Below are positions 8,281 through 31,946 of a stretch of DNA of 58,436 nucleotides, piece after piece. The stretch is from Oscillospiraceae bacterium (GTDB lineage Bacteria; Bacillota; Clostridia; Oscillospirales; CAG-272). The stretch's first letter is position 1, and every line of letters starts with the position of its first letter. Under the pieces are notes generated by a model. The model was not told the DNA's origin. It saw only the letters and a list, made by a program, of their open reading frames with translations, and ran no database searches. Location of the stretch: assembly GCA_015064965.1 (NCBI GenBank), contig SVRG01000004.1:1-58436 (forward strand), written 5' to 3'. Both the position numbers and the translations under genes were made by a program.

Positions 8281-11200
8281 ATGCGTAGAATAATATTTTC
8301 AATATGTATTTTTGCACTTGCAGTTTCGCTTTCACTTTTTGCAGGTGCGGCTCAAATAGGCAGTGCTGATGAACTGCTCACGCTTATGAACACGCCTGCT
8401 ATGTGGGCAAATGATTATACGCTTACCGCAGATATAAATCTTTCGGATGCCACAAACGGACTTTCGCAAGCACCTATCGGCAGCGAGAGTATACCGTATA
8501 GCGGCACCTTTGACGGTGACGGCTATACAATAAGCGGCATCAATATCAGCGGTGCCGGAAATGTTGCATTGTTCGGTTTCGCAGGCGGCGCAACTATTAA
8601 GAATTTGACGGTAGACGGCACAGTTTCTTCTACTACCAACTGGGCGGCGGGTATTATTGCAAGAGTTTCGGCGGCAAGTATTACTGTAGAAAACTGTGTA
8701 AACCGTTGTACAGTAAGCGGCGTTGACTCTGTCGGCGGCATCGTGGGCAGACTTGAGCCAGGCTCACTAAACGCTACTATAAGCGGTTGTAAAAACGAAG
8801 GCACAATTACTGCTGCCCGTTACAGTGGCGGTATTGTGGGCTTCAGCTCACAGACAAGCGGTGCTACTGTTATTGAAAAATGCTGGAATGACGGTATTGT
8901 TAACGGTACACAGGGCGTAGCCGGTATTGTCGTATTTTTCAGAGTATATACAGGTTCAAGCGGCAAGTGTTATGTGCAGGACTGTATAAACACAGGTAAA
9001 GTTCATGCGACAACTGCATACGCAGGCGGTATTCTTGGCTGGGGACACAACAAGAATTTTGCATATACGGTAACACGTTGCTTTAACGGCGGTTCTGTTA
9101 CTTCTGATAAGGCATCATATGTTCGTCCGATAGCAGGAGTTATTTCCAAGGCGACCTATACCGCCGGTAACATGAACGCTTGCTACTACACAACTACCGA
9201 TGCATATACCTCCGAGAGCGATTGCTATGCAAATCTCTGTGAAACTTTTGTTGCAGATGCAACTGTAGCGACCACACTCACAGGACTTGGCGAAAACTTT
9301 GTAGTTGCTGATGGCTATGCACCTCAGCTTAAAAACTTCCATACACATGACTATAAATACAGCGCTATAGGCGCAGAGCATGAGTACGCTTGTTATTGCG
9401 GCGATGTTTCTCTTACAGAGGAACATACCTTTGTTGACGGCGTGTGCGATAAGTGCGGAGCCGAGGACATTCCTTGTGCGCACGATAACAAGTACGAGAT
9501 TGTTGAAAATGCAGCAACTTGCGCTTCGGTAGGCAGCAAATATGAATTTTGTCCCGATTGCCAAACCAAAGTGAGCGGAGATATTGAAATTGCTATTGAT
9601 GCAAATAATCATAGCGGCACTTTGACTATGGTGCTTGAAAACGGTGCACTTACATATATCTGTTCGGATTGTGATGCAGCAGCGTATACAGACAGTGCAC
9701 TTCTTGACACAGTTTATGTTTCACAAACCGGTGCAGAGCTTAAAGGAAACGTTTCGTCACAGATCGGTACAAGTGCAAATCCTTTCAAAAACTTTACCGA
9801 TGCTATGCAGTATGCGGCACTTGTGGGTAAGGATGTAACCGTTACAATTCTGGATACTGCAGAGGTTCCTGAAAAATATCATACGCCCGAATTTGAAAGC
9901 ACTGTTACTGTAACGGGCGGCACGCTTATTACGCATACCCGTTTCATAATGCACGGACCGATGGTGTTTGAGCATATTTGCTTTAAGGACAGCGGCAATC
10001 CCTTTATTGCGGCTCAGGAACACAAAGTCGTAATGGGAGAGGGAATCACCGTTTCAGGCGGAGGTATTTATCTTGTAGGCGGCTACGAAAACGGAACTGC
10101 CACGAACAGCGATATTCCCTCTACAGGATATTCCACGGATGTAACTGTACGCTCAGGTGTGTATCACGGAATTGCAGGTGCAAACCGTTATCTTGGCGGT
10201 GCATATTCCGGTACAGTCAAAGTAGTTCTTGGTAAGACTAACCCGAGTGATACACTTAAAATTACAAGCACTCTTGCTGTAGTAGGATTTAATTCCGAGG
10301 GCGGAGATGGTGTAAATGCAACGTTCATCTTTGAAGGTAACGTAGATGAGATTGCAAGTTTTTGCCCGATAAGCCATGCGAGCAATGCAACAGGTCGCTT
10401 TGATATTGATATCGTTGTACGCGGCGGTGCTGCTTTGGATAAAACCAAAGTCATCTATCGTGGAGCCAATGCGACTGTTAACGTGTATTCCGATTCCCGC
10501 ATAGAGGGTGCGGATGAACTTGCGGCAACTATAACGGATGCAGATAAAGTTCAGCCTTACAAACGCTATTGCCTCAAAGTAAACGGAGAGCATCCGGATG
10601 CAAATTCAGACGGTATTTGTGATAATTGCGGCGCTTCTACCGCTTGTGAGCATATTGACGGCGAGTGGCAGGAAACCATGTCGGCAAACTGTGCAGATAA
10701 GGCTGTTTATACCTGGTATTGCTATGACTGCAAAGAACTTGTCAATGACATGACCAAAGAGGGCGAAGCTCCCGACGCTGACAATCATGTAGCAGATAGT
10801 TTTGTATGGAACAATGACGGCGAAAAGTATTACTTTGTCTGCAATTCTTGCGGTGCCAAAGTGGAACAGACCGATGCTCCTTCGGTTTATGTATCTTCAA
10901 GCGGCAGTGATAAAAATGATGGCAGAACTGCAGAAAAAGCAGTGAAGACGCTTGCAGAAGCAGTAACGCGCATTGCAAATGTTGGTGGCAAGATTGTAAT
11001 TGTTTCCAACTACACTCTTGATGGAGACGTTGTACTTCCTGCATATACAAAGCCTATTTCTTTTGTTGGCTACGATGCAGATGACGGATATGTTCCCGGC
11101 GGTTTTACGGCATCGGCAAATGTTGTAATTTCTCTCGGCGGCAAAACAAGCTTCGAGGATATCACATTTGCAGGCGGCAAGCGTTATACAATCGTTGCAA

Positions 11201-12663
11201 ATTGGAACGACATCACTTTTGGAAGAGTTTATTCGTTAAGCGATTCATATTCCTATGTTGTTCTTGGCGGATACCCGATAACCGAGAGTGACAATGAGGC
11301 AAAGTCGGCTACACTTACAATTAAAGAAGATGTAACCCGTGCACGCACGCTTGACGGAACGGTTACAAGAGACCGTTTCTATACACGCATTTATCTCGGA
11401 AGCGTTTTCGGTGCTGATAATATCGGCGTTGCAAATAAGAGTGCTACACTTACTGCCACAAATGCAGATATCGGTGTGCTTTATACAATGTCTACATCCG
11501 GCTCGCATAAGCTTACCACAGCAAAAAACTGTGAAACTACAGTAAATCTTTATGGCAGAGCAACTGTAAATCAGGGTAGAACCGGCGACTACAACGTGGC
11601 GTATGCTACATCTAAGGGTTCACAGAAAAACTTAACATTGAATTTGTTTGATAATTCCGCAATTCTTACGAATTATTATATTCGAAACTGCGAGAATACT
11701 GTAATCAACGTTTCCACCAAGGCTGACGGAAGAACATTTATGATTGATATTCCGTTTACCTTCTATGCATTCGGCGACTTTGCGGCAAACGGTACGGCTA
11801 TTAATGTTGAAATCAACTACGGTGAGCACGGTTTTGCTCCTTCACTTGATACGCCTTGTGTGTTTGTCGATTCGGCAGATGAAATTAAGATTTATGAGGC
11901 TAATGCTGTCGAGGAGTGCGAATACGTTGAGAGTATAGCTCATGCGGCAACTCCAAAAGAAAAAGGAATGAAGCATTATTCCTGCACTTGCGGTAGATAC
12001 TACGATGAAGAATATGAGTATTCCTGCGAAGAAGCAACGCACATTTATACTGCATATGCAGACGGTACTTTTAAGTGCTCTGTATGTGAGAAAACCTTTA
12101 CAACACTCAGCGAAAATCTTGTTGTTAAAGCAACTTCTATAGCGGTTGCTGACGGAAAAGCAAGTGTAAATGTAAATATTACCGGTACATTTGCGGCAGC
12201 ACTTGTAAGTATTACTGCTCCTGAAGGATTTGAGCTTGCAGATGCAACACTTGCTGAAAATGCAGAACTCGTGTTTGCAGGCAATGAAGCAGACAGTGAA
12301 TATTATCTCACCGTTATGAGTGCGAGCGGTGCAGATAGAGAAATTAACGAAACGTTTGTTTTAACATATTCTGTGGCTGATTCCACTGCATATGGAAGTT
12401 ATATTCTTGACGTTGTTGCATCAGAGGTTTACAATGCAACCGGTGAAGCGCTTTGTATGACTCCCGTAAGTGCGGAAATCGTATATGCAGAAGAAACAGT
12501 TATAGGAGATGTGGACGGTGACGGTATTGTTACAGTTGCAGATGCTCTTGCAATTATCAGAGCATTGCTTGATGATATCAGTTTGCCTAATGCAGATCTT
12601 AACGGCGACGGCAAATTAGGTCTTTTCGATGTAATCAGAGCAATCAAGTTAATAGCGCAGTAA
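8281..12663 (+). CDS. Large secreted multidomain protein: GLUG/beta-helix repeats, Cys/His ribbons, cohesin-like module, dockerin
   Basis: Signal peptide; FDGDGYTISG and VGGIVG/CxNxG repeats; two VYVS..G..G....P.K beta-helix caps; CxH..CxxC linkers; beta-rich module at ~12115-12486; dockerin from 12505. Confidence 0.8.
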   Translation: MRRIIFSICIFALAVSLSLFAGAAQIGSADELLTLMNTPAMWANDYTLTADINLSDATNGLSQAPIGSESIPYSGTFDGDGYTISGINISGAGNVALFGFAGGATIKNLTVDGTVSSTTNWAAGIIARVSAASITVENCVNRCTVSGVDSVGGIVGRLEPGSLNATISGCKNEGTITAARYSGGIVGFSSQTSGATVIEKCWNDGIVNGTQGVAGIVVFFRVYTGSSGKCYVQDCINTGKVHATTAYAGGILGWGHNKNFAYTVTRCFNGGSVTSDKASYVRPIAGVISKATYTAGNMNACYYTTTDAYTSESDCYANLCETFVADATVATTLTGLGENFVVADGYAPQLKNFHTHDYKYSAIGAEHEYACYCGDVSLTEEHTFVDGVCDKCGAEDIPCAHDNKYEIVENAATCASVGSKYEFCPDCQTKVSGDIEIAIDANNHSGTLTMVLENGALTYICSDCDAAAYTDSALLDTVYVSQTGAELKGNVSSQIGTSANPFKNFTDAMQYAALVGKDVTVTILDTAEVPEKYHTPEFESTVTVTGGTLITHTRFIMHGPMVFEHICFKDSGNPFIAAQEHKVVMGEGITVSGGGIYLVGGYENGTATNSDIPSTGYSTDVTVRSGVYHGIAGANRYLGGAYSGTVKVVLGKTNPSDTLKITSTLAVVGFNSEGGDGVNATFIFEGNVDEIASFCPISHASNATGRFDIDIVVRGGAALDKTKVIYRGANATVNVYSDSRIEGADELAATITDADKVQPYKRYCLKVNGEHPDANSDGICDNCGASTACEHIDGEWQETMSANCADKAVYTWYCYDCKELVNDMTKEGEAPDADNHVADSFVWNNDGEKYYFVCNSCGAKVEQTDAPSVYVSSSGSDKNDGRTAEKAVKTLAEAVTRIANVGGKIVIVSNYTLDGDVVLPAYTKPISFVGYDADDGYVPGGFTASANVVISLGGKTSFEDITFAGGKRYTIVANWNDITFGRVYSLSDSYSYVVLGGYPITESDNEAKSATLTIKEDVTRARTLDGTVTRDRFYTRIYLGSVFGADNIGVANKSATLTATNADIGVLYTMSTSGSHKLTTAKNCETTVNLYGRATVNQGRTGDYNVAYATSKGSQKNLTLNLFDNSAILTNYYIRNCENTVINVSTKADGRTFMIDIPFTFYAFGDFAANGTAINVEINYGEHGFAPSLDTPCVFVDSADEIKIYEANAVEECEYVESIAHAATPKEKGMKHYSCTCGRYYDEEYEYSCEEATHIYTAYADGTFKCSVCEKTFTTLSENLVVKATSIAVADGKASVNVNITGTFAAALVSITAPEGFELADATLAENAELVFAGNEADSEYYLTVMSASGADREINETFVLTYSVADSTAYGSYILDVVASEVYNATGEALCMTPVSAEIVYAEETVIGDVDGDGIVTVADALAIIRALLDDISLPNADLNGDGKLGLFDVIRAIKLIAQ

Positions 12664-20088: not shown

Positions 20089-21108
20089 TTACAACCATTT
20101 TGCAATCTCTATGAGCGCTTTGCGTGAGGACACGCCGAGCTTGCTGTAGAGATTTTTATTATGGAATTTGAGCGTATTTTCCTTTATATTCAGCGTAGCC
20201 AGAATTTCCTTGGTGGATTTGCCTTCAAGATAGAGATCATATATTGCTTTTTCGGTTGGGGTCAGCGTTTTCAGCCCTTGTACAAACAACTTCTGTTGCT
20301 CGATAAGCTCTTTTGTGGGCTTGATTTCGGGTGCTTGCGGTTCGGGCATGGGTGTGGCAAACAACTTTTCGCCGTCCTGAATTATCAGATACAGCCCAAG
20401 CAAAAAAATCTCGCTGATGATATATGATACAGAGAGGAATTCAAAATCAATTCTGACAAGCTGCTCAAGCAGCCAGACACCGAGGTTTGCAAATACGGCG
20501 GCTGCGAGAAAAACCGCCTGTATATGTGACGGAACACTCTTTTTTATTGCCGCGTGTAAAATGGCGGCAACCATTGCGGCAAAATATGCAAGCAGAAAGA
20601 CGAGATAGATCACATGCCACGGGCCGTACACTTTTTCAAGTACGGAGACACCGTTTACATTTTGCAAATAAACTTCCTTATAATAGATATCCGAGTATCC
20701 GGGACTTGCCGCAACAAAGAACACAAACAGGCTGATGCAAACGAGCAGATATGGCAGCCACTTGATATATCGCAAGCGACATACTTTTACGATAGTCAAT
20801 AGCATTGCCAAGGGTAAAAAGACCGAGCCGAGGTAGGAAACTCTGTTTGCCATAAGCGCGCCGTCAAGCGTAGTTGCCTTGGCAAGCGAAAGATAGCCGA
20901 TGTTGACTATCACTGCAGACGTAAAAAGCACCATCAGCCAAAACTCTTTTTTGCGAATAAGTGTAAGGTATCCAACCAGCATCAAAATGGAAAGAAGCGT
21001 TGTGACAACATAAACCGCTGACATATCCATTGCTTTGCCGCCGACGGCGGAGCATCCTGCAAAAAAGCAAAGAGGAAGTAACGCGGCACTACCGAAAATC
21101 TTCTTCAT
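20089..21108 (-). CDS. Membrane-integral 7TM sensor fused to a LuxR-type HTH regulator
   Basis: About 7 TM segments resembling HisKA_7TM; C-terminal LTPTEKAIYDLYLEGKSTKEI..IKENTLKFHNKNLYSKLGVSSR. Start moved to MKKIFG after AAGGAG. Confidence 0.88.
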   Translation of the reverse strand: MKKIFGSAALLPLCFFAGCSAVGGKAMDMSAVYVVTTLLSILMLVGYLTLIRKKEFWLMVLFTSAVIVNIGYLSLAKATTLDGALMANRVSYLGSVFLPLAMLLTIVKVCRLRYIKWLPYLLVCISLFVFFVAASPGYSDIYYKEVYLQNVNGVSVLEKVYGPWHVIYLVFLLAYFAAMVAAILHAAIKKSVPSHIQAVFLAAAVFANLGVWLLEQLVRIDFEFLSVSYIISEIFLLGLYLIIQDGEKLFATPMPEPQAPEIKPTKELIEQQKLFVQGLKTLTPTEKAIYDLYLEGKSTKEILATLNIKENTLKFHNKNLYSKLGVSSRKALIEIAKWL

Positions 21109-21149
21109 AAATCGCTCTCCTTGAAACAATTTACCTGTAAAACCCAAAA

Positions 21150-21220
21150 ACCACACCGTTTCCCACACTTTTTGCGCTAAAAACGGCGGCATCCCACACT
21201 TTTATTTTGCCTTTGTGTGG
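21150..21220. promoter_or_regulatory. Candidate LuxR operator repeats
   Basis: TCCCACACTTTT at 21161 and 21192 (31-bp spacing), CCACAC at 21151 and inverted GTGTGG at 21215. Confidence 0.5.
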
Positions 21221-21422
21221 CGACTTTGGGCTATTTTGTAATTTAATATTAAATTAAAGGGTATAGAAGGATGGTATATAACCTTGCCTTGTAAAAAGGG
21301 GTACCCCATTTACAAATTCATGTAAATGTCTCTGTGGCGCGCCAACGAAACAGAGACCGCCCCTAATAATTATAATTATATATTAACATAAATATATAGT
21401 TAAGTCAACGGAGGTATCCAAA

Positions 21423-24400
21423 ATGAAAAAACTTGGCAGAGTTTTGATTATGTGCCTGCTTGTCTTTTTGCTTGCCTTTACGGTGGTTGCAGAAGACGGC
21501 GACAACTGTATGTACTGCGGTGCATATCGCTTTGGCGATTGGCTTTGCGAATGCGGTCTTTGCAGCATTGAGGCAGAGCCCGCGGATTGCTGGGCAGCAA
21601 CGCACTGCTGGGAATGCGGTGCTTGCTTTAACACACGTTCCAAATTCTGCACCGAATGCCATCTTTGCGACGATTGCTACGTCGGCGAGGCATACCATTG
21701 CATGGGCTGTGAGGAGTGCTATGCCGGCGACCAGGATGCGCTATGCAGCATATGCTGGTTCTGTGAGAGCTGCGCCGGCGCATTATGTGATGATTGCGGC
21801 CGTTGCGAGAGCTGTCAGGAGTTTGAAGGCGGTGTGCATTGCCCCGAGTGCGGCTACTGCTATAACGCATACGGCGCATGCGAGGAAGATGGCGCCGAGC
21901 ACTGCAAGGAATGCTGCCTGCCTTGCGAAAAATGCGAGCGATGCGTTTTCGATGACGGTCTTGAACTCTGTGATGAATGTAATGCCTGCGAGGAATGCTG
22001 TGAGGCAGAAGCACAGAGTGAGGGCTGTGAGTGCGGCGAATACTGCGTGGAAGGCTCCGATTGGTATGACCATATCTGCCTTGACTGCGGAACTCCGTTT
22101 TGCGCAATAGAGCAATGCGATATCTGCGAGGTATGCCTTGACTGTTGCGAAGGAAACTCCGATTGCAGCGAGGGGCTTTGCGTAATGGACGATGAATATG
22201 ACGAGCATTTCTGCCTTGACTGCGGCGCGTGTTTCCATGATGTAGACGTATGCGAGATATGCTATGGTAACGGCGAGCTTCGCTGCGAGGACTGCTGCCG
22301 TATGTATGCCGAGGATGAAGGCTGCGATTGCGGTGACACCTGCGTGAGCGACCCTGACTTTGATATGCATGTTCTCACTGAGCATTCAAATGGCGGCGAA
22401 CACAGTGCAAAGCCGCAGAACACATGGTCATTTGACGAGACCTATCACTATGTGAGCTGCCGCTACTGCGACAGTGCGGCACACCTCACTGCAAAGGCAA
22501 AGCACACGCTTAACAAGTACGATATCTGTACAGTTTGCGGCTACAACACCAACACAAAGATACTTGTTCTTTCTCAACCGCAGAGCAGAGTTGTAAGCGT
22601 AAGCGATAATGAAGCAGATGCCGGCGACCCCTATAACATCGAGGACAACAAGGTTTCGTTTTCCGTTTTTGCCAAAGGAACAAGCAAACTCAGCTACCAG
22701 TGGTACGAAAGATACGGAAACGGAAAGTGGACGGCACTTGAGGACAATACATCCTCGTGGAACAATGGCAAAAAGTTCAACACCGTTCACGGTGCAAAGA
22801 CCGAAAAACTGACGATTTCTGTTCCGACGACGGTTTGCTATGGTGAGAACTCTTACCGTTGCGAGATTAAGGATGAGGACGGAAATACCGTATATTCTGC
22901 CGAAGCGTCTATTTTTTCCAAGCACATTTATAAAGAGTGTACCTACTATAAGGGCGCGCTGATTGGCATTATCCATCAGCCTAATAAGAATAACAACATC
23001 GGTGTGTATGAAAGCAAAGTACATGAAATAATCTGTCTTGGTGACGGCTGCGAGGCGGTAAAGGAATTGCCCCACAACTTCGGCAAGGCAGAGGGCGAGG
23101 TTACGGATAGCGTTGACGGCAGCGTATGGACAAAGTTCACCTGCCGTGACTGCGGATTTACTACACATATAAAGAATCACGACCACTATTTCTTCGATAA
23201 AGAAACAGGCGAGTGCGTGGTGGATTACACCTATAAAAACGGCACACAGCACCGTCTTAAGTGCCTCTATGACGGCTGTACCAAGACTACCTTGGAGAGC
23301 CACACATGGCTTGCATGGGGTAATCAGGGAACACCTCATACCGCATCAAACGGCATTGGCGCGCCGTACAAGGAATGCAGTCTTTGCTCCTATACCACAA
23401 CAGAGAAGCCGATGCGATTTGACAGCGTAAAAGAGGAGAACATTGCAACTGATTGGACAAAGTCAAATGACCTTGTATATGTACAGTACGGTCACGCATC
23501 AAGCGATATTTATGTTATGGGCGACAGTATTGAGATCACCTTTGCCCCCACTGTCAACGATAAAAACGATTACATCAAGATCAACAATCCGAGATGCCTT
23601 GCTTTCCGCGTATACTATAGCGGAAACGGCGTGAGTGACCTTGATGTAACGGGCTACGCAACCTCGGTAAAGCTTGAGGGCGAGCCAAAGTGGACTTTTA
23701 TTATCAAGAGCTTTAAGGAATACACAGGCGGCGGTATCTTCACATTTATCCCTGCAATTGATAAAGCCGAGTGTAAGCATCAAAGCGGCACAAGAATCTT
23801 CGGCGCATACAAGCCTGTCTGCGTAAAGGACGGCTACACCGGTGACCTTTGCTGCTGCGATTGCGGTTATGTTGTAAAATACGGTGAAACTATCGAGGGC
23901 GGCAAAGAGCATACAGGCACTCTCACACTTATTAAGAGCACTGTAGTAAAAGCAACATGCGAACAGCGCGGATACGAAGGCTCATACAAATGCTCGCATT
24001 GTGGCATGGTGGTTATGGGTGATACCACACCGAGACAGCATACGGGCAAGATAACCGTTAAAAATGCAAAATCGGCTACCTGTTTTGACTTTGGTTACAC
24101 AGGCGACACCTACTGCTCATGCGGCGACCTTGTAAAAGAGGGCAAACTCATAGCACCTACACATACCAAACTTCAGACACTTAACTATAAAGAGGCAAAC
24201 TGCCAGCATGACGGCTATACAGGCGATATAAAGTGTGCAGTGTGCGGAATTTATGTAAAATACGGCTACACGCAAAAGGGCACAGAGCATGCATTCTCCG
24301 TTTGGAAAGCACAGGACGGAGTAAATCACAGAAGCTACTGTACGGTAAGCGGATGTAACGAATTTAAAGTTGAGCCGCATACGGATGCTGACCGTGACCT

Positions 24401-25424
24401 TGTTTGCGATATATGCTCTTACTCTTTAGGCGAGGACGGAGAGTATATTTCGCTCATCTCTCTCAGTGTTACCGCTCCCGAAATCGGTGCAAAGGCTGAT
24501 TATACCAAATTTGATACCAAGCGTTTCTACAGTGATAATCTCGGTGACCGCTCAGGAAAGTATACGGACGGTATAAGCTGGATAAATGTTGAAACAGGCA
24601 AGAAAGTCAGCGTATTTGAAGAGGGCGGCGTTTATAAGCTTACCGTTTGCTTCAGAAGTAAAGAAAACTATTCCTTTACCGAAAATCTCACTGCCACCGT
24701 CAACGGTTCTGTAGCAGTTGCAGAGTATCTTGGTGCTGATTTTGCAAGCATTGAGTACACATTCCAAAAGCTTGGCCACGCTCATGATTACATCCTGATG
24801 CGTAACGAAAGCAGCCACCACTATGAGTGTCTTGTTTGCGGAGATGCAAAGGATGCAGGCAACCATGTGTTTGATGCAAACGGACGTTGCAAGAGCTGTG
24901 GCTACAACAAGAGCAACAATAACCCGTTTACCGACGTTAAGGCAAGCGATTACTTCTTTGATGCGGTGATGTGGGCAAAGGATACAGGCCTTACCGTAGG
25001 TACAACGGCGACTACCTTCTCGCCAAATGAAACATGTACAAGAGCGCAGGGAATAACATTCCTTTGGCGTGCGGCAGGCAAACCCGAACCCAAGTATTCT
25101 TCACCGTTTGTGGATGTAAAAGCCTTTACCGACGTAAAAGAGAGCGACTATTTTTACAAAGCAGTGTGCTGGGGCGTTGAACAGGGAATTATCGTGGGCA
25201 CATCCGCAACAACCTTTACGCCTCACCAGACCTGCTCAAGTGCGCACATTATGACAATGCTTTTCCGCGCAATGAAGATCGGCACTAACGGCTGGTACGA
25301 GGAAGCAAGGGATTGGGCAAAGAAAGAGGGACTCCTCAACGGAACAAAATTTGTTGTTTCTCCCGATGAGCCTTGTCCGAGAGCGGGAATTGCGTATTTC
25401 CTCTATATGTTTTACGAGAAATAA
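21423..25424 (+). CDS. SLH-anchored surface protein with an extremely Cys-rich N-terminal domain, Ig-like domain and Cys/His repeats
   Basis: Signal peptide; about 63 Cys in aa 29-307 (manual count); Ig-like SQPQS..SYQWY..YRCEI; ATC..GYTGD..C..CG repeats; C-terminal SLH (PFTDVKASDYFFDAV, FSPNETCTRAQ). Confidence 0.88.
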   Translation: MKKLGRVLIMCLLVFLLAFTVVAEDGDNCMYCGAYRFGDWLCECGLCSIEAEPADCWAATHCWECGACFNTRSKFCTECHLCDDCYVGEAYHCMGCEECYAGDQDALCSICWFCESCAGALCDDCGRCESCQEFEGGVHCPECGYCYNAYGACEEDGAEHCKECCLPCEKCERCVFDDGLELCDECNACEECCEAEAQSEGCECGEYCVEGSDWYDHICLDCGTPFCAIEQCDICEVCLDCCEGNSDCSEGLCVMDDEYDEHFCLDCGACFHDVDVCEICYGNGELRCEDCCRMYAEDEGCDCGDTCVSDPDFDMHVLTEHSNGGEHSAKPQNTWSFDETYHYVSCRYCDSAAHLTAKAKHTLNKYDICTVCGYNTNTKILVLSQPQSRVVSVSDNEADAGDPYNIEDNKVSFSVFAKGTSKLSYQWYERYGNGKWTALEDNTSSWNNGKKFNTVHGAKTEKLTISVPTTVCYGENSYRCEIKDEDGNTVYSAEASIFSKHIYKECTYYKGALIGIIHQPNKNNNIGVYESKVHEIICLGDGCEAVKELPHNFGKAEGEVTDSVDGSVWTKFTCRDCGFTTHIKNHDHYFFDKETGECVVDYTYKNGTQHRLKCLYDGCTKTTLESHTWLAWGNQGTPHTASNGIGAPYKECSLCSYTTTEKPMRFDSVKEENIATDWTKSNDLVYVQYGHASSDIYVMGDSIEITFAPTVNDKNDYIKINNPRCLAFRVYYSGNGVSDLDVTGYATSVKLEGEPKWTFIIKSFKEYTGGGIFTFIPAIDKAECKHQSGTRIFGAYKPVCVKDGYTGDLCCCDCGYVVKYGETIEGGKEHTGTLTLIKSTVVKATCEQRGYEGSYKCSHCGMVVMGDTTPRQHTGKITVKNAKSATCFDFGYTGDTYCSCGDLVKEGKLIAPTHTKLQTLNYKEANCQHDGYTGDIKCAVCGIYVKYGYTQKGTEHAFSVWKAQDGVNHRSYCTVSGCNEFKVEPHTDADRDLVCDICSYSLGEDGEYISLISLSVTAPEIGAKADYTKFDTKRFYSDNLGDRSGKYTDGISWINVETGKKVSVFEEGGVYKLTVCFRSKENYSFTENLTATVNGSVAVAEYLGADFASIEYTFQKLGHAHDYILMRNESSHHYECLVCGDAKDAGNHVFDANGRCKSCGYNKSNNNPFTDVKASDYFFDAVMWAKDTGLTVGTTATTFSPNETCTRAQGITFLWRAAGKPEPKYSSPFVDVKAFTDVKESDYFYKAVCWGVEQGIIVGTSATTFTPHQTCSSAHIMTMLFRAMKIGTNGWYEEARDWAKKEGLLNGTKFVVSPDEPCPRAGIAYFLYMFYEK

Positions 25425-25433
25425 GGAGCGACT

Positions 25434-28304
25434 ATGAAAAGATTAATTTCGATATTACTTGCGGCAGTTATGCTTGCAGTGACTGTTTTTGCAGACGATA
25501 CGCCTTGTCAGCATGAATTTTTGGCAATGAGAAATATGGTAAGCCACTATGAGGAATGCCAGAAGTGCTACACAGTTCAGAATGTGGGCAACCATGTAAT
25601 CAAAGACGGCAAATGCACAGTTTGCGGCTATGAGGGCGCAATGGCTGAAGATGTTCGCGGCGAGGGAGAGCACTCTCACAAGCTGATGAACGGCGCAGAC
25701 GCGGACTATCACTTTGAAGAATGTCAGGTCTGCTTTGAGCGCTTCAATGTAAAGGACCACACCTTTAAAGACGATAAATGCACAGTTTGCGGCTATGATA
25801 AATTTGCAAATCCCTTTATCGACGTAAGCGAGAGCGCATGGTTTTATAATGACGTGATCCGCGCATACTATGACGGACTTATCAACGGCAAAACCAAAAT
25901 GACCTTTGCGCCAGACCTCAATATTACATACGTTGAGGCAATCAAGCTTGCGGCTTGTATGTACCAGAAATATACCGAGGGCAAGGTAACTTTAACCGTT
26001 GGTAACCCCTGGTATAAGCCGTATCTCGATTATTGCATTGAAAACGGAATTCTCAAGGAAGACCACGGCTACGATTTGAACGCTCCTGCAACAAGACAGG
26101 GATATATGCGCATTTTTGCATATTCACTACCTGCAGAGGCACTTGAGGAGATAAACTACGTTGCCGAGGATGCAATTCCGGACGTGAAAAAAGACCCCGC
26201 TATCTACAAGCTTTACCGCGCAGGTATCGTTGGCGGCGTTGATGCAGCGCGCAACTGCAATCCCGAAGCAAACATCAAGAGAAGTGAAGTTGCGGCAGTT
26301 CTCACAAGAATGATGAACAAGAGCGCAAGAATTGAGTTCACTCTCGGCGAAAAGCCCGCACAAACCGCGCCGCTTGAATTTAAGGGCGCCACTTCATATC
26401 TGGAATTCGGAAAATATATATTCCTTGCGTCTGTTTCGGGTGGAGAAGCTCCTTATACATATACATGGTACTACAGCGACGGTGAAAAAGGCACAAAGCT
26501 TGCAAATGACAGCTTTGTAACCTTTACCGATGACGGCGCGGGCGGTGTAAGCGCAGTTTTCCTTTTCACCAAGGACAATCCGTATCTCGCAAAGCAGATA
26601 AAGCTTGCGGTTACAGATGCAAAGGGTGAAAAGATTGATTCCGGATATACCGATATTCCGGCATATTTTGATGTCGGGGAACCCGCAGATGAGCAGCCGG
26701 CAGAGACTTATTCAAAGCTTACAATTACCGAACAACCTGAGTATATTGCATCGGCAAAAGAGGGCGATTATGTAACATATTCGGTATTTGCCAAGGGCGG
26801 CAAGCAGCCATACAAATTTGAGTGGCTCTATTATACAGGCTACAAGGACCGGACCGATACTTTCAAAAATGACGGATATGCAATACTGAGCGGTGACGTT
26901 ATTACGCTTAAGTTTGATTTGGATAGCCCATATCTTGAAAAGAAGTTTTTCTGCAGGGTTACCGATGAAAACGGCGAAAGCGTAAATACAAACACCGTTA
27001 AAATGCCTGAAGCACCCTTTACAATGGAGCTTGAGGACATTGTAAAAAATTCGCTCGGAACTATAGTTGTCGGCACGGTTAAGACCGGCAAGATAACCGC
27101 CGGCGAACATCTTGTATTTTCTTTTGACGATAAATACACATACGGCAGCGGCAAGGTTGAAGCAATTGAAATGTTCCAAAAGCAGCTTGACGTGGCAACC
27201 GCAGGGGACAGAGTGGGACTTTTGTTTAAGGAAATCGGCACTATCAATACCCGTGCCGCAGTTCTTGATTACGACACGCAAAATCTTATCGGCGACAAAA
27301 AGAATATTGCTATCAAAGAGTCTTTAAGTGTAGGTGTAAGTTATACCCCAAGAGGAAATATCGGTGACTTTACAAAAATGACTGTATATGCTATGGGCGG
27401 CATGGAGCCCTATACATATGTTTGGCAGGCGCTTAAAGACGGCAAGCAAGCTTATAATATTGCCGCTATTGCAAAATCAGAAGAGTGGGCAAACGGAGTT
27501 GACAAAGATACGCTTAATATAAAGCTTACCGAAGCGCAGTTTGCATTCGGTATGTCATTCCGCTGTATGGTAACCGATGCGGCAGGCAATGTTGCGTATT
27601 CCAAGGCATATGTTCCCACAGTTCATAGCCTTGTTATTGCAAACCATCCCGAGAGCGTTTATGCAAACTACGGCGATAAAGTTGAGTTTAAGGTAAAAGC
27701 ATACGGTGCAAACGACAGCGCTCTTACCTATCAGTGGCGCTATATCTATGACGGCGCAAAGACCTTTAAGGATATTTTGCCCACTGACACATGGGCAAGC
27801 GGCTGTAATACCGATACACTTACAATTCAGGTGGAAAAGGCTGAGCTTACAAACCACGTATATTACCATTGCGTCGTTACCGATGCTGAGGGCAACAAGG
27901 CTATAACAGCGGCGGCGACAATTTCTCCCGAAAAGCCTTTTGTATCAAAGCAACCCGGTGTTGTGGCGGCAAAGCCTGACACCTACATCAAGTTCAGCGT
28001 GGAGGCGGACGGCAGATACAAGCCGCTTTCCTATAAGTGGTATTATTTTGTGGACGGTATGGGCTTCTTCTATCCCGTATCCAAGGACCATGAGTGGGCA
28101 GAGGGCGAGACCACAAACACTCTTACCGTAGGCGTTGACAGAAAGCATTTTGACGGCAGCTTTAAGTGCTATTGCCTTATAACAGATGCAAACGGCAACG
28201 AGGTCAAGAGTCTTGAGGGCAGTGTAACGCTCAGCGATGATGCAAACGTAAATCTCGAAACAGGTCACGCGCCTAAAGATGATATTCTTGTGCTTATCTG
28301 GTAG
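25434..28304 (+). CDS. SLH surface protein with tandem Ig-like domains and an EF-Tu domain II-like insert
   Basis: Signal peptide; two His/Cys ribbons; SLH repeats (PFIDV, FAPDLNITYVEA, NPEANIKRSEVA); about five GG..PY.Y.W..C.VTD Ig-like units; EF-Tu-like segment at 27015-27240. Confidence 0.85.
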   Translation: MKRLISILLAAVMLAVTVFADDTPCQHEFLAMRNMVSHYEECQKCYTVQNVGNHVIKDGKCTVCGYEGAMAEDVRGEGEHSHKLMNGADADYHFEECQVCFERFNVKDHTFKDDKCTVCGYDKFANPFIDVSESAWFYNDVIRAYYDGLINGKTKMTFAPDLNITYVEAIKLAACMYQKYTEGKVTLTVGNPWYKPYLDYCIENGILKEDHGYDLNAPATRQGYMRIFAYSLPAEALEEINYVAEDAIPDVKKDPAIYKLYRAGIVGGVDAARNCNPEANIKRSEVAAVLTRMMNKSARIEFTLGEKPAQTAPLEFKGATSYLEFGKYIFLASVSGGEAPYTYTWYYSDGEKGTKLANDSFVTFTDDGAGGVSAVFLFTKDNPYLAKQIKLAVTDAKGEKIDSGYTDIPAYFDVGEPADEQPAETYSKLTITEQPEYIASAKEGDYVTYSVFAKGGKQPYKFEWLYYTGYKDRTDTFKNDGYAILSGDVITLKFDLDSPYLEKKFFCRVTDENGESVNTNTVKMPEAPFTMELEDIVKNSLGTIVVGTVKTGKITAGEHLVFSFDDKYTYGSGKVEAIEMFQKQLDVATAGDRVGLLFKEIGTINTRAAVLDYDTQNLIGDKKNIAIKESLSVGVSYTPRGNIGDFTKMTVYAMGGMEPYTYVWQALKDGKQAYNIAAIAKSEEWANGVDKDTLNIKLTEAQFAFGMSFRCMVTDAAGNVAYSKAYVPTVHSLVIANHPESVYANYGDKVEFKVKAYGANDSALTYQWRYIYDGAKTFKDILPTDTWASGCNTDTLTIQVEKAELTNHVYYHCVVTDAEGNKAITAAATISPEKPFVSKQPGVVAAKPDTYIKFSVEADGRYKPLSYKWYYFVDGMGFFYPVSKDHEWAEGETTNTLTVGVDRKHFDGSFKCYCLITDANGNEVKSLEGSVTLSDDANVNLETGHAPKDDILVLIW

Positions 28305-28313
28305 GAGGTAAAT

Positions 28314-28772
28314 ATGAATTACATTGGCAAATGGGTGTTTCATTCCATCGGTGAGATGACCGAGGACGGCGAGCTTCGCTATATGAATGCTGAAGAATAC
28401 ATTGCATCTCCCATGCCTTATATTGATGAAAATGATGCAGAGGAGGTAGCAGATGAACTTGCCGAGCGCAAAAAGACGGTTGGCATGGAGCTCCGCGTGC
28501 TTTCTGACGGAACTCTCTACATGCTGATGCCGATTCCCGAGGGCGTAAGTAAGGAAGAGGTCGATGAGGCGGTTGCCGCAGGCGAGATAACTCTGTATGA
28601 CGGCATGATGTGCGACTCCCCGAAAAAATGGGAGGAGCGCGACGGCACACTCTGGTTTGACTCCGGCATTCACGGTGAAGTGTTTGGCGAAGCTGCCGAT
28701 CCATGGGTAAAGGCAACTGACGATGACGGATTTTTCAACTTTATGAGCTTTCGCTTTGTGAAAGGAGAGTAA
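28314..28772 (+). CDS. Hypothetical acidic protein
   Basis: AGGAGG RBS, operon-coupled spacing, YIGKW N-terminus. No function recognised. Confidence 0.75.
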   Translation: MNYIGKWVFHSIGEMTEDGELRYMNAEEYIASPMPYIDENDAEEVADELAERKKTVGMELRVLSDGTLYMLMPIPEGVSKEEVDEAVAAGEITLYDGMMCDSPKKWEERDGTLWFDSGIHGEVFGEAADPWVKATDDDGFFNFMSFRFVKGE

Positions 28773-28775
28773 AAT

Positions 28776-29375
28776 ATGAGCATTTTCGATTCCATAAAAA
28801 GAGCAATAGGCGCATCTCTTAAAAAAGAAGCGGCTAAAGTCGTAAATGAAGCGGTTTCCAATATCGGCAAGGGCAGAAATCACACCGAGAGCTTTACTTT
28901 TTCTGCTCTGCCCACAAGCGTAGCGGAGATTCAGGCACTTGAGGAGGGCTCGCTTGACAGCGCATTCAAGACCGCAGCACTGACAATTGCGGTGCTTTGC
29001 CACTATGAAAAGGATATAGACGCAACCCTTGCAATGCTTGATTTTCTCAAGGGCCCCGAAAGCGTAAGCCCCTATGAAAAGCAGTTCATCGGCGAGCGTC
29101 TGCGCGACAAGGGCTACAAGATGTATGCCTTTTTCAAGGGGGCAACACCGGAGAATAACTATACCCCCACTACACCGTACACCGTTGAGATAATAGAAAA
29201 TCCATACTCGTTTGACAACGAAAACTGGGCGACTTTGTGGGTAAAGAGCGGCGGCTCCGACAATCCGAGTTCTTTAAAATTCCGCAAGAAACCGTCAACA
29301 GGACAGTGGTTTTTAAACGATATTCAGTGCCTTTCCGACATCCGTTTGCCTGTGGCAAAGGATGATTGGGCATGA
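28776..29375 (+). CDS. Conserved hypothetical protein (DUF6935-like)
   Basis: FTFSALPTS..FKTAALTI..FFKGATPENNY.P..SGGSDNP..GQWFL..SDIR.P resembles DUF6935 as recalled. Confidence 0.7.
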   Translation: MSIFDSIKRAIGASLKKEAAKVVNEAVSNIGKGRNHTESFTFSALPTSVAEIQALEEGSLDSAFKTAALTIAVLCHYEKDIDATLAMLDFLKGPESVSPYEKQFIGERLRDKGYKMYAFFKGATPENNYTPTTPYTVEIIENPYSFDNENWATLWVKSGGSDNPSSLKFRKKPSTGQWFLNDIQCLSDIRLPVAKDDWA

Positions 29376-29392
29376 GGCGTGAGGCGATATTG

Positions 29393-29920
29393 ATGAGCAT
29401 ATTTTCAATATTGCTTTCGCTGTTTGAATGCGGTAAAAAGGCGCATATAAACACCTTTTTCCCCTCTCCGGTGCCGCTGCCTGCGGGGGAAACTCTCACC
29501 GGCCTTCACATGACAAGACAGGGCATGAGAAGCGGACTTTGCTATGTCATGTCTGTCGAGGGTGAGGACATATTTTTAAAGATGACAAACTGTCATCCGC
29601 TAGAAAAGGAGTACCGCTTTAATGCAAAGGAAATACTTAGCAAAAACGAAAAATGCGCTATCAAATCCACAAATGACATACAGGTACTGCGCGATATAGA
29701 AGAGGCGCTTGTTGATTGCGGCACGGTGGGGTGGGACGGATTTAACGAGACAATCATCATGAAAAACGTAACCGATACAGGCGAAAGATACGAAATTTAT
29801 CTGCGTTTTTCGGGTGGAAGTACCGTCAGCGTATATGGCATTGACATATGCCCCGACCGCTTTAACGAGGTGTTTAATCGCATTGCCGCTATTTTTCGCA
29901 GAACTGTCAAGTGGGAGTAG
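29393..29920 (+). CDS. Hypothetical protein (start 29372 or 29393)
   Basis: Operon-coupled ORF; C-terminal half resembles 30352-30852. Confidence 0.65.
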   Translation: MSIFSILLSLFECGKKAHINTFFPSPVPLPAGETLTGLHMTRQGMRSGLCYVMSVEGEDIFLKMTNCHPLEKEYRFNAKEILSKNEKCAIKSTNDIQVLRDIEEALVDCGTVGWDGFNETIIMKNVTDTGERYEIYLRFSGGSTVSVYGIDICPDRFNEVFNRIAAIFRRTVKWE

Positions 29921-29926
29921 TTTATA

Positions 29927-30355
29927 ATGAGTATTTTTAAAACGGATAGCTTCTGTATTACAGTTCCGCAGGGGTGGAAAGCTTTCAAGGTGAATGAAAG
30001 AGTAATACATATATGCAAGGGCGGAGAAAAGGATAGCGATATTCTCTCAAAACCGTATATGCAACTCAATTTTTCCGGCGAAGCATACATGATCCCGCCT
30101 TCGCGGTCAGGATACTATGACATCACCGATATTCCGCCGATCACGCTTGGCAACTACACCTGGCAGGGGTTTGAGTGCGAGAGCATGGGCTTTCGCGTGG
30201 CAATGATCTTTACAGGAGAGGGCAAGCGGCAGTTTCAGGTATCTGCCAATCTTGAAACTCCGATTGGCAAGATAGAAATGACGGATGCGGATGTGCAATC
30301 AATTCTTGCTTCTGTCACGCTGCTTGGTTCCGGCGAAGAAAGAGAGTCTATATGA
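29927..30355 (+). CDS. Hypothetical protein
   Basis: GGGAG RBS; F.ITVPQGW start and ILASVTL end are reminiscent of PsbP/DcrB-like folds (weak). Confidence 0.7.
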   Translation: MSIFKTDSFCITVPQGWKAFKVNERVIHICKGGEKDSDILSKPYMQLNFSGEAYMIPPSRSGYYDITDIPPITLGNYTWQGFECESMGFRVAMIFTGEGKRQFQVSANLETPIGKIEMTDADVQSILASVTLLGSGEERESI

Positions 30356-30852
30356 TAAGGTTGTTAAAGTCGCTTTTCAGAAAAAGACGCGCCGACACCG
30401 AGGACGGCGGTGTAAGAAAACGGATTTGGTATGATGCACCGAAAAAGATTGTTTCCGAGCAGATAATAAGCTTCAAATGTGAGTTTTCCACGGTGACAAT
30501 TGTTGATGACATCCCGATAGAACACGGCGTATACACGCTTTTTGCAAGACTTAAAGACGGAGCAGTCCGCGGAGCATATGAGCTGCGGACTCGCGACGGA
30601 AGCGGTGAACAATTTGACTTTCGCCAAAGCCATCGCTTTTTGAGAAGCGTGCAAAACGTTGTCAGCACATATGACATTGCAAAGCATAACGGCATGGAAT
30701 ACCGTGTCAGCGGACTTCCCGATATGTACGGCGCAAATATCAGCATTGTATATGCTTCGGGCGAACGTATTTATGCAAGCGACAATCAAAACAATTTTTT
30801 ATCAGTTGAGGCAATGGCGGAGCTTGTAAAACTGTTTTTGCAACAGAAATGA
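30352..30852 (+). CDS. Hypothetical protein
   Basis: ATGA overlap with the upstream stop; followed by a terminator. Confidence 0.7.
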   Translation: MIRLLKSLFRKRRADTEDGGVRKRIWYDAPKKIVSEQIISFKCEFSTVTIVDDIPIEHGVYTLFARLKDGAVRGAYELRTRDGSGEQFDFRQSHRFLRSVQNVVSTYDIAKHNGMEYRVSGLPDMYGANISIVYASGERIYASDNQNNFLSVEAMAELVKLFLQQK

Positions 30853-30856
30853 GCAT

Positions 30857-30887
30857 AAAAAGAGCAGGTCATATGGCCTGCTTTTTC
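30857..30887 (+). terminator. Intrinsic terminator ending the SLH operon
   Basis: AAAAGAGCAGGTCA-TA-TGGCCTGCTTTTTC. Confidence 0.8.
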
Positions 30888-30927
30888 TTAGAGCGGCATG
30901 GCAAAATTCAGCCGAAGATGGTTTTTG

Positions 30928-30957
30928 TTGACTTTCACCGCCTATCCGTGATATAAT
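30928..30957 (+). promoter_or_regulatory. Sigma-A promoter
   Basis: TTGACT-18-TATAAT with a TG extension, 38 nt before the GT2 ATG. Confidence 0.7.
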
Positions 30958-30995
30958 TATATGTAATATTCGGTGCAAAAATAAGGAGAGGTAAT

Positions 30996-31946
30996 ATGGA
31001 TAAGATAGCAGTTCTCATTCCTTGCTACAATGAAGCGAAAACTATCGAAAAAGTTGTAAAAGACTTTAAAGAGGTTCTTCCTGAAGCGGTAATCTATGTG
31101 TACGATAACAATTCGACTGACGGAACCGCTGAAATTGCACAAAAAGCCGGGGCTGTTGTGCGCCACGAATACCGCCAGGGAAAGGGAAACGTTGTGCGCA
31201 GAATGTTTCGTGAGATCAATGCACATTGTTATATCATGGCGGACGGCGACGACACATATCCTGCAGAGTATGCGCCCGAAATGGCATCACTTGTGCTTGA
31301 TAAAAAGGTGGATATGGTTGTCGGTGACAGACTTACATCCACATATTTTACAGAAAACAAGCGCCCCTTTCACAATTTTGGAAACTCATTTGTAAAGAAA
31401 ACTATAAACCTTCTTTTCAAGAGCGATATCAGGGATATTATGACAGGCTACAGAGCGTTCAGCTATCATTTTGTCAAGACATTCCCCGTGATTTCAAAGG
31501 GATTTGAAATTGAAACCGAAATGAGTATTTTTGCAATAGACAAAAATATGTATGTTGAAAACGTGGTTATTCAATACCGCGACAGAGTGGACGGCAGCGA
31601 ATCCAAATTGAATACATATGTTGACGGATTCAAGGTGATAAAGACAATTTTCAGACTCTTCCGCGACTACAAGCCGCTTGCATTTTTCGGTACGATTTTT
31701 GCAATACTTTCGCTGCTTGCCGTCGGTTTCTTTGTACCGATTCTGGTTCAGTATCTGCGCTCCGGCCTTGTGCCAAACTTCCCAACGCTGATCGTTTGCG
31801 GATTTGTAGAAGTGGCAGCGCTTTTGTCCCTTTGCGCGGGTATGATCCTCGAAAGCATCAAACTGAAGAACAGACAGGACTTTGAACTGCAGCTGATACA
31901 GGCGGAAAACACCGTCAGAGCGTTGGAAAATGAAGAAAATCATTGA
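30996..31946 (+). CDS. GT2 polyprenyl-phosphate glycosyltransferase (GtrB/DPM-like)
   Basis: IPCYNEA, YDNNSTDGT, DGD.TY, DIMTGYRAFS, GFEIETE; two C-terminal TM segments. Confidence 0.92.
   Translation: MDKIAVLIPCYNEAKTIEKVVKDFKEVLPEAVIYVYDNNSTDGTAEIAQKAGAVVRHEYRQGKGNVVRRMFREINAHCYIMADGDDTYPAEYAPEMASLVLDKKVDMVVGDRLTSTYFTENKRPFHNFGNSFVKKTINLLFKSDIRDIMTGYRAFSYHFVKTFPVISKGFEIETEMSIFAIDKNMYVENVVIQYRDRVDGSESKLNTYVDGFKVIKTIFRLFRDYKPLAFFGTIFAILSLLAVGFFVPILVQYLRSGLVPNFPTLIVCGFVEVAALLSLCAGMILESIKLKNRQDFELQLIQAENTVRALENEENH

Follow-up and report, generated by a model that had tools for sequence, protein, structure and literature searches.

How does a beta-barrel of the translation elongation factor EF-Tu come to sit inside a bacterial surface protein, and what does it do there? 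This question is raised by a 956-codon gene at positions 25434..28304 (+ strand) of a 58,436-nucleotide (nt) stretch of DNA from an Oscillospiraceae bacterium (contig SVRG01000004.1 of GenBank assembly GCA_015064965.1; this whole stretch is the window). A sequence-only reading of the window had placed an EF-Tu domain II-like barrel at 27015-27240, between Ig-like domains of a secreted S-layer protein, and had proposed that a translation-factor domain without its GTPase was recruited as a dedicated surface module. The DNA at 27015-27240 (+) translates exactly to the peptide quoted there and lies in frame within the 956-codon open reading frame (ORF). The segment at amino acids (aa) 528-612 is a homologue of EF-Tu domain II and shares its fold, and sequence, fold, architecture, conservation and the existence of a family all agree with the proposed recruitment. 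At roughly even odds (a probability of about 0.5), we consider the barrel to be a non-translational module for extracellular recognition or contact.

The identity of the barrel was established by several comparisons. The 75-aa piece matches the Pfam profile GTP_EFTU_D2 (PF03144) with 33.0 bits (E 8e-8), above the curated cut-off of 30.3 bits; this HMMER comparison had been named beforehand as a check. Within the whole 956-aa protein, the same profile aligns to aa 542-602 with 28.7 bits (E 1.8e-6), just below the cut-off, and a genome-wide search gives 32.8 bits for the surface gene, above it. NCBIfam models of full-length EF-Tu align aa 520-602 with EF-Tu residues 204-285 (E 1.4e-8 to 8.5e-8), and EF-Tu and EF-1alpha models rank first among the NCBIfam matches on the protein. 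The genome also has a tuf of its own, an intact gene of normal length (400 aa) that lies apart on contig C91 (L001:814-2016), and the barrel shares 36% identity with this EF-Tu over 83 aa in BLASTP (E 2e-10). To describe the barrel as a profile, the segment was aligned from ten orthologues (alignment A2); P0003, an 823-aa form with 100% identity to the 956-aa protein, was excluded from A2 and from a further alignment, A1. The A2 profile finds 77 matches among all PDB sequences at E<=0.01, the best at 2.1e-10, and all of the 60 matches listed are EF-Tu or eEF1A, fusion constructs included.

The predicted fold leads to the same family. The AlphaFold2 model of the barrel, computed from A2, is all-beta with a mean per-residue confidence (pLDDT) of 82.7 and a predicted template-modelling score (pTM) of 0.76. 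Foldseek returns 164 matches to the PDB at E<=1e-3, with query-normalised template-modelling (TM) scores of 0.58-0.66 in the top rows; the best match has E 4.8e-6 and a TM score of about 0.65. The matches listed down to rank 49 are all EF-Tu, mitochondrial EF-Tu or eEF1A, and an archaeal protein made of one such barrel domain comes next, at rank 50. An independent model of the protein in the ESM Atlas superimposes on EF-Tu domain II clusters with TM scores of 0.72-0.74, while a feature search of the ESM Atlas with the barrel gave no usable match. A two-copy complex prediction of the barrel from A2 (score 0.00, mark 0.42) bears on dimerization neither way.

A profile of 54 barrels, consisting of the one studied here and 53 from related loci described below, was run over the whole genome. 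It recovers the surface gene with 112 bits, EF-Tu with 75.9 bits and two other GTPases with 22.9 and 18.3 bits, and nothing further. Because EF-Tu scores so far above the other GTPases of the genome, the barrel is EF-Tu-type and not EF-G-, IF2- or LepA-type. The predicted absence of a GTPase domain also holds: the 956-aa protein has no match to GTP_EFTU (PF00009), and none to a profile of EF-Tu domain I that we built. Domain III is likewise found neither by GTP_EFTU_D3 (PF03143) nor by our own domain III profile. Judged by its sequence, the protein is not an EF-Tu, as it lacks domain I, domain III and the full aminoacyl pocket.

The gene and the parts of its product are as follows.

25434..28304, + strand: SLH-anchored surface-protein gene, 956 aa, stop codon included; the same architecture in 10 homologue clusters
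25434..25493, + strand: signal-peptide-like N-terminus, aa 1-20; from the translation, MKR, a hydrophobic run, and VFA before DD
25509..25799, + strand: two Cys/His-rich repeats, aa 26-122, with CxxC...CxxC in each
25809..26348, + strand: SLH cell-wall anchoring region, aa 126-305; PF00395 at E 7.7e-13 in 2 stretches (aa 128-305)
26376..26663, + strand: Ig-like module 1, aa 315-410; model, and a SprB repeat motif (Pfam)
26721..26993, + strand: Ig-like module 2, aa 430-520; full-length model
27015..27269, + strand: EF-Tu domain II-type beta-barrel, aa 528-612; Pfam, NCBIfam, BLASTP, PDB profile, AlphaFold2 and Foldseek
27270..27320, + strand: linker 3' of the barrel, aa 613-629; low pLDDT, with LIGDxKNIxIK invariant among orthologues
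27321..27608, + strand: Ig-like module 3, aa 630-725; full-length model
27633..27929, + strand: Ig-like module 4, aa 734-832; model, best Pfam Ig_3 / I-set stretch 735-826
27939..28238, + strand: Ig-like module 5, aa 836-935; full-length model
28245..28301, + strand: conserved, unstructured C-terminal tail, aa 938-956; homologue alignment and model

A Pfam scan of the whole protein recovers the SLH region, Ig_3 (E 2.7e-12), the SprB-repeat motif and I-set. The barrel indeed lies between Ig-like domains, and beta-sandwiches are resolved by the model on both sides of it. The full-length model has a mean pLDDT of 62: the N-terminal third is low, most 10-residue blocks of the beta part reach 70-93, and the linker at aa 614-627 is of low confidence. 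In this model the barrel ends near 27269, about 30 nt beyond the end first assigned to it. The N-terminus contains a hydrophobic run of 15 residues, and a signal-like N-terminus is kept in 10 of 10 homologues. The protein is most likely exported via the Sec pathway, as its N-terminal sequence suggests. The earlier description as a secreted S-layer protein stands in part: the SLH anchor is present, and is the best conserved part of the protein, but the label 'S-layer protein' exceeds the data.

The ATG is preceded, at a distance of 6 nt, by an AAGGAG motif that shares bases with the stop codon of the gene upstream. A promoter and terminator scan of 20900-31200 gave counts not above those of shuffled sequence. 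Two minus-strand ORFs over the barrel (26712-27281 and 26840-27247) match no Pfam family and were taken as shadows of the conserved plus frame. The Cys/His-rich repeats at aa 26-122 are zinc-ribbon-like in their CxxC...CxxC pattern and separate the putative signal peptide from the SLH region in a protein predicted to be exported; they match no Pfam family at E<=0.01, and the first is absent from 3 of 10 homologues. The C-terminal tail carries the motif LETGHAPKD followed by a short hydrophobic end after the last Ig-like module. We take it to be loosely sorting-signal-like, but it has neither the long hydrophobic stretch nor the charged end that such signals usually show.

A translation-factor domain in a surface gene could be an artefact, whether a chance similarity, a chimeric misassembly of tuf with a surface gene, or a dead gene. 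The assembly is fragmented and incomplete (148 contigs, 79.7% complete, 4.6% contamination), and no RNA run is listed for the stretch. However, the similarity is found at E 1e-8 to 2e-10 in four independent comparisons, and contigs of separate runs cross the junctions without a difference. Logan contigs of two runs, both of them possibly the source of the sequenced DNA, span 25300-28400 with 0 differences. A Logan contig of a third run, which is not marked as a possible source, covers 25300-27290 with 0 differences and includes the Ig-to-barrel junction and the whole barrel. In all, 7 DNA metagenome runs contain the stretch or part of it. At least six other metagenome-assembled genomes (MAGs) have the gene, with orthologues of 64-87% identity in assemblies other than this one; for the orthologous genes recovered from further MAGs in the scan of representative genomes described below, the range is 66-87%. 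Ten homologue clusters, 60-100% identical in the barrel region, carry precomputed SLH, Ig_3 and PF03144 annotations in 10 of 10 cases. Because the barrel is only 36% identical to the tuf of the genome, a recent mis-join of tuf is impossible. A dead gene is opposed by the intact frame, the Shine-Dalgarno motif and dN/dS values well under 1. The other objection named in the sequence-only reading, a lack of a significant domain II match or barrel fold, does not apply, as both are significant. The objection of a chimeric assembly, raised in the sequence-only reading against itself, is thus not upheld, and as far as sequence data can do so an artefact is already refuted; we regard its remaining probability as negligible.

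The barrel is not confined to this genome. When the A2 profile was run against 1.84 billion cluster representatives, 653 matches were obtained at E<=1e-3. We scanned 32 of the top matches with Pfam, picked for a length or repeat count unlike that of EF-Tu. Nine of them are proteins with SLH and EF-Tu D2, most of which also have SprB or Ig_3. A further 13 are D2 proteins of other kinds without a GTPase, and 5 have a G domain. The last 5 are also without a G domain: one has only D2 and D3, one has SLH and Ig without a Pfam D2, and three have no Pfam D2. Non-GTPase D2 architectures include tandem D2, two D2 with a cold-shock domain, two D2 with a caspase, Sel1 with D2 and TerB, and an L7/L12 C-domain with SEC-C, D2 and D3 (P0014-P0017, P0020, P0038, P0059); these proteins are probably cytoplasmic.

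When species-representative genomes were scanned by means of the full-length alignment, 77 loci were obtained. With one exception they belong to MAGs whose titles read Clostridia, Eubacteriales, Oscillospiraceae, Feifaniaceae, Ruminococcus or similar, many with isolate names that suggest ruminant guts; the exception (L037) is from a Peptoniphilus isolate genome. A six-frame hmmsearch of the 77 loci places the barrel in 53 ORFs of 34 loci, and 16 loci have 2-3 adjacent genes that each carry one. The other 43 loci are not shown to be barrel-free, since many loci are cut by contig ends. Both SLH and GTP_EFTU_D2 are present in 14 of 14 barrel ORFs scanned with Pfam and in 10 of 10 close homologue clusters, which bears out the architecture suggested for a search. 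No SLH ORF of the 77 loci is matched by our EF-Tu domain I profile. Short-frame matches in three genomes of one genus were considered as extra non-GTPase barrels; two of these were retrieved, and each proved to be a normal EF-Tu gene truncated at the end of its contig.

A pair of genes recurs among these loci (L064, L067, L073, L075, L084, L038, L045, L048 and others), in which the gene for an SLH/Ig protein of about 800 aa, its barrel mid-chain, immediately precedes that for an SLH protein of 520-670 aa that ends in its barrel. A TPM-domain protein lies upstream of the pair in L067 and L073. Public records that carry a name say 'hypothetical' (2 named members among 5 clusters looked up), so the family is currently invisible in annotation. 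In the full-text literature outside subscription journals, we found no SLH protein with a translation-factor barrel and no EF-Tu domain II exapted for secretion. The SLH and EF-Tu-barrel proteins of uncultured gut Clostridia are an undescribed family, a new architecture made from known parts.

Some relatives retain more of EF-Tu than the 956-aa protein does. Domains II and III occur together in nine related SLH proteins. Domain III is detected by Pfam in L052:4030-8082, L014 and L063, and in six ORFs by our own profile, which was made from 29 Clostridia EF-Tu; two ORFs of a second genome of the order (G110) and protein P0134 bring the II-III proteins to nine. The II-III unit lies at the C-terminal end in L052:4030-8082, L014, both L117 ORFs, L032 and P0134. 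Two proteins of about 1670 aa from different genomes (L014:2458-7482 and L117:1475-6484) combine a Zn-dependent phospholipase C and PLAT with SLH, an Ig-like module and C-terminal EF-Tu II+III, the II-III unit being appended to the enzyme in the manner of an accessory binding module. In L117, the gene after the phospholipase C protein encodes a 674-aa SLH/Ig protein, also with II+III.

The two branches differ in how much of the aminoacyl pocket they keep. The pocket residues of EF-Tu domain II are Glu226, Asp227, Phe229, Thr239 and Asn285, according to the portion of PMC4329189 that describes them. The equivalent positions, inferred through the alignment to the host EF-Tu and the coordinates of the PDB-profile matches, are E, D, V, V and R in the 956-aa protein, so that 2 of 5 are kept. 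In its branch, Glu is kept in 7 of 7 barrels and Asp in 6 of 7, while none of the 7 has retained Phe, Thr or Asn at the corresponding positions. In contrast, each of the five residues is kept in 5 of 6 sequences of the II-III branch, and the identity to the host barrel core is 36-47% there, compared with 28-33% in the branch of the 956-aa protein. Since the protein has no domain I or III, is predicted to be exported and keeps only Glu and Asp of the pocket, the barrel is probably inactive in translation.

These residues bear on whether the barrel could still bind an acceptor-end-like ligand outside the cell, such as extracellular RNA or DNA or an aminoacyl ester. It descends from a domain that binds the acceptor end of tRNA, the Glu226 equivalent is invariant, and the 75-aa piece weakly matches a model of the archaeal tRNA-binding protein Pbp11 (E 7.1e-4, 19.5 bits against a cut-off of 100). 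However, domain III is missing, and so is the pocket residue His67, which domain I supplies; the equivalents of Phe229, Thr239 and Asn285 are replaced in 7 of 7 barrels of this type. The loss of three of five pocket residues and of both domains argues against a tRNA-type ligand for the 956-aa protein, and we consider retained nucleic-acid or aminoacyl-ester binding the least probable of the functions weighed here.

A barrel that still resembles EF-Tu might instead serve as a surface decoy, trapping interbacterial toxins that dock on EF-Tu, phage proteins or thiopeptide antibiotics directed at domain II while these are still outside the cytoplasm. The known EF-Tu-dependent toxins encounter EF-Tu inside the target cell, which counts against a trap on the surface. 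The retained EF-Tu-type sequence and fold would suit such a trap, as would the pocket of the II-III branch, and the structural matches include EF-Tu complexes with CdiA toxins, Tse6 and thiopeptide analogues, as named in the entry titles. A contact-dependent inhibition toxin that requires EF-Tu is described in the consulted part of PMC9071432. In contrast, the branch of the 956-aa protein has changed three of five pocket positions and retains only 28-33% identity to the host barrel core, and the conserved neighbourhood contains no toxin, immunity or antibiotic genes. We regard a decoy as very unlikely.

The origin of the barrels was approached by phylogeny, as the sequence-only reading had advised. 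In the domain II tree (134 rows, 95 columns), the surface barrels fall into at least four clades that form a polytomy with EF-Tu, apart from the EF-G/LepA-type. No donor can be named from the position of the surface barrels relative to the EF-Tu clade of Clostridia: domain II gives the polytomy, and the II-III tree unites the nine proteins in one clade (support 99) on a long stem of 1.06 outside the sampled EF-Tu. When all 63 surface barrels were constrained to form one group, the resulting tree exceeded that of the free quick search by 26.5 log-likelihood units, and its p value in the approximately unbiased test was 0.78. Because the constrained tree is the best tree found, a single capture is compatible with the data, though unproven. 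On such a course, a tuf-derived II-III piece would have been inserted once into an SLH/Ig surface-protein gene, and copies of the barrel would have spread among paralogues of one fast-diversifying surface-protein locus. Domain III and most of the aminoacyl pocket would then have been lost in most branches, including the lineage of the 956-aa protein.

The barrel has been preserved. Pairwise ratios of nonsynonymous to synonymous substitution (dN/dS, Nei-Gojobori), calculated for the surface gene and six orthologues, are 0.04-0.24 in the barrel, 0.13-0.28 in Ig-like module 2, 0.09-0.32 in Ig-like module 3 and 0.03-0.07 in the SLH region. The barrel of the 956-aa protein is under purifying selection. 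It is kept in 10 of 10 homologues, and Ig-like module 1 is absent from 4 of 10. A Tyr/Gly-rich loop in the barrel is invariant among the orthologues and absent from EF-Tu.

These observations lead us to favour a recognition or contact module. The protein would be exported by Sec and held at the wall by the SLH region near its N-terminus. Its outer part would consist of five Ig-like beta-sandwiches broken by the one barrel derived from EF-Tu domain II, and the barrel would act as a rigid binding or contact head shown on an Ig-like stalk. Candidate partners are host or dietary material, another cell, or a neighbouring surface protein. Fourteen ORFs end in the barrel, which is there the last domain of a protein anchored near its N-terminus. 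The reading is favoured because of these C-terminal barrels, the II-III unit appended to an enzyme, the constancy of the barrel and its extra invariant loop.

Several points weigh against it. The function is deduced from position and conservation only, and export from an N-terminus read by eye. The positions conserved across subfamilies are largely the signature of the fold itself (F, GRV, G, MF.K.lD, G), and so they do not indicate a binding site. In the 956-aa protein the barrel is mid-chain, with two Ig-like modules before it and three after, which suits a structural module equally well. The base of the domain II tree is unresolved: it was built from 95 columns, and 55 of its 128 branches have a support of less than 80, so the order 'II-III first, III lost later' is something that we infer. 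The distribution is patchy: 101 genomes sampled from the order yielded long-frame barrels only in this genome and G110, and with this query four other genomes of the same family have only frames of EF-Tu length or one shorter.

The mid-chain position is the starting point for a purely architectural role, in which the barrel would be a rigid beta-domain of an S-layer or S-layer-associated array, a spacer or a contact to the lattice or to neighbours without an external ligand. The barrel has linkers on both sides between its Ig-like modules, the conservation across subfamilies matches the core of the fold, and the layout of SLH with beta-domains is typical of S-layer-type proteins. The adjacent paralogous SLH genes, two or three in 16 of 34 loci, resemble the paired S-layer genes of other Bacillota. 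On the other hand, a spacer would hardly be expected to stay in 10 of 10 homologues while Ig-like modules come and go, to evolve under a dN/dS at or below that of the flanking Ig-like modules, or to carry an extra loop that is invariant among orthologues. In many relatives, moreover, the barrel is distal or attached to an enzyme. We treat an architectural role as the main alternative, a possible though not the expected outcome.

The surroundings of the recognition-module candidate recur in part with its relatives. The flanking features are:

20089..21192, − strand: divergent membrane regulator with HisKA_7TM and GerE/LuxR, upstream of the barrel locus
21423..25424, + strand: 1333-aa protein with C-terminal SLH, 9 nt upstream of the barrel gene
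28314..29375, + strand: 152-aa ORF and DUF6935 protein, downstream of the barrel gene

The 1333-aa protein is syntenic in L008, L009, L011 and L012; beyond its C-terminal SLH it has no recognisable region, and the ESM Atlas offers only unnamed clusters under 0.9. The HisKA_7TM and GerE regulator adjoins SLH genes with a barrel in 5 of the 10 further loci that were searched for it (L008, L012, L035, L045, L048), and the pair of an ORF of about 150 aa and a DUF6935 protein also lies 3' of barrel genes in L048 and L035. As the same flanks surround several barrel subtypes, the barrel-bearing SLH genes seem to be alternative occupants of one diversifying locus. Elsewhere in the window, two further large surface or secreted proteins are encoded: a 1460-aa protein that ends in a type I dockerin (8281-12663) and one of 1782 aa in which a phosphodiester glycosidase (NAGPA) domain is combined with choline-binding repeats (47576-52924). 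Genes for polysaccharide synthesis (GT2, DUF6020, Wzz) are clustered after the barrel locus.

Taken as a whole, the family offers a clear, datable case in which a core translation domain was exapted for extracellular use. A gut-bacterial lineage has built EF-Tu barrels, either domain II or, in the least diverged branch, II with III, into genes that also encode a wall anchor and a putative export signal, and has kept and multiplied them under purifying selection. This enlarges the repertoire of modules in SLH surface proteins, and the small, stable barrels are a direct experimental handle for expression and ligand screening.

Whole EF-Tu moonlights on bacterial surfaces, where it is reported to bind fibronectin, mucin, plasminogen and other ligands. 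The 956-aa protein would likewise place an EF-Tu-derived polypeptide on the bacterial surface. A bolder possibility, which we think unlikely, is that the surface barrels, ancestrally II+III, are dedicated adhesins that use a binding capacity intrinsic to EF-Tu beta-barrels. If so, a moonlighting activity of other bacteria would have been hard-wired into Sec-exported, wall-anchored genes, which would be genetic evidence of real, selectable extracellular functions of EF-Tu, and the GTPase-free barrels would be clean reagents for ligand finding. Bolder still, the II-III branch, with its retained pocket, may intercept at the surface agents directed at domain II of EF-Tu. In the excerpts consulted of PMC6822514 and PMC5593925, moonlighting EF-Tu is the product of tuf, has no signal motif and leaves the cell by a debated route. 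According to the same excerpts (PMC6822514, PMC5593925), whether surface EF-Tu is functional or accidental is contentious, and it is so because EF-Tu is without an export signal. For this reason, and because its route to the surface is debated, a dedicated, exported and anchored module derived from EF-Tu is noteworthy. In contrast to moonlighting EF-Tu, it has a separate gene, a signal-peptide-like N-terminus and an SLH anchor, and of EF-Tu it contains the barrel only, 36% identical to the tuf product.

Compared with EF-Tu domain II itself, the fold and the sequence signature are the same, and searches by profile, by BLAST and by structure all rank EF-Tu first. However, the barrel here is without the G domain and domain III and lies inside an exported SLH/Ig protein; its core identity is 28-33%, two of five pocket residues are kept, and it has the extra Tyr/Gly-rich loop. 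With the SLH S-layer and S-layer-associated proteins of Bacillota, the 956-aa protein shares the signal-like N-terminus, SLH, the string of beta-sandwiches and the side-by-side paralogues. It differs from them in its translation-factor barrel, and the resemblance to them is one of layout. Other GTPase-free barrels of EF-Tu type, such as the archaeal Pbp11 / PF0907-like proteins and the tandem D2 proteins, also carry the barrel outside a GTPase and combined with other domains. In contrast to the family described here, none of those scanned has SLH or Ig, and they are grouped apart in the tree, with weak basal support.

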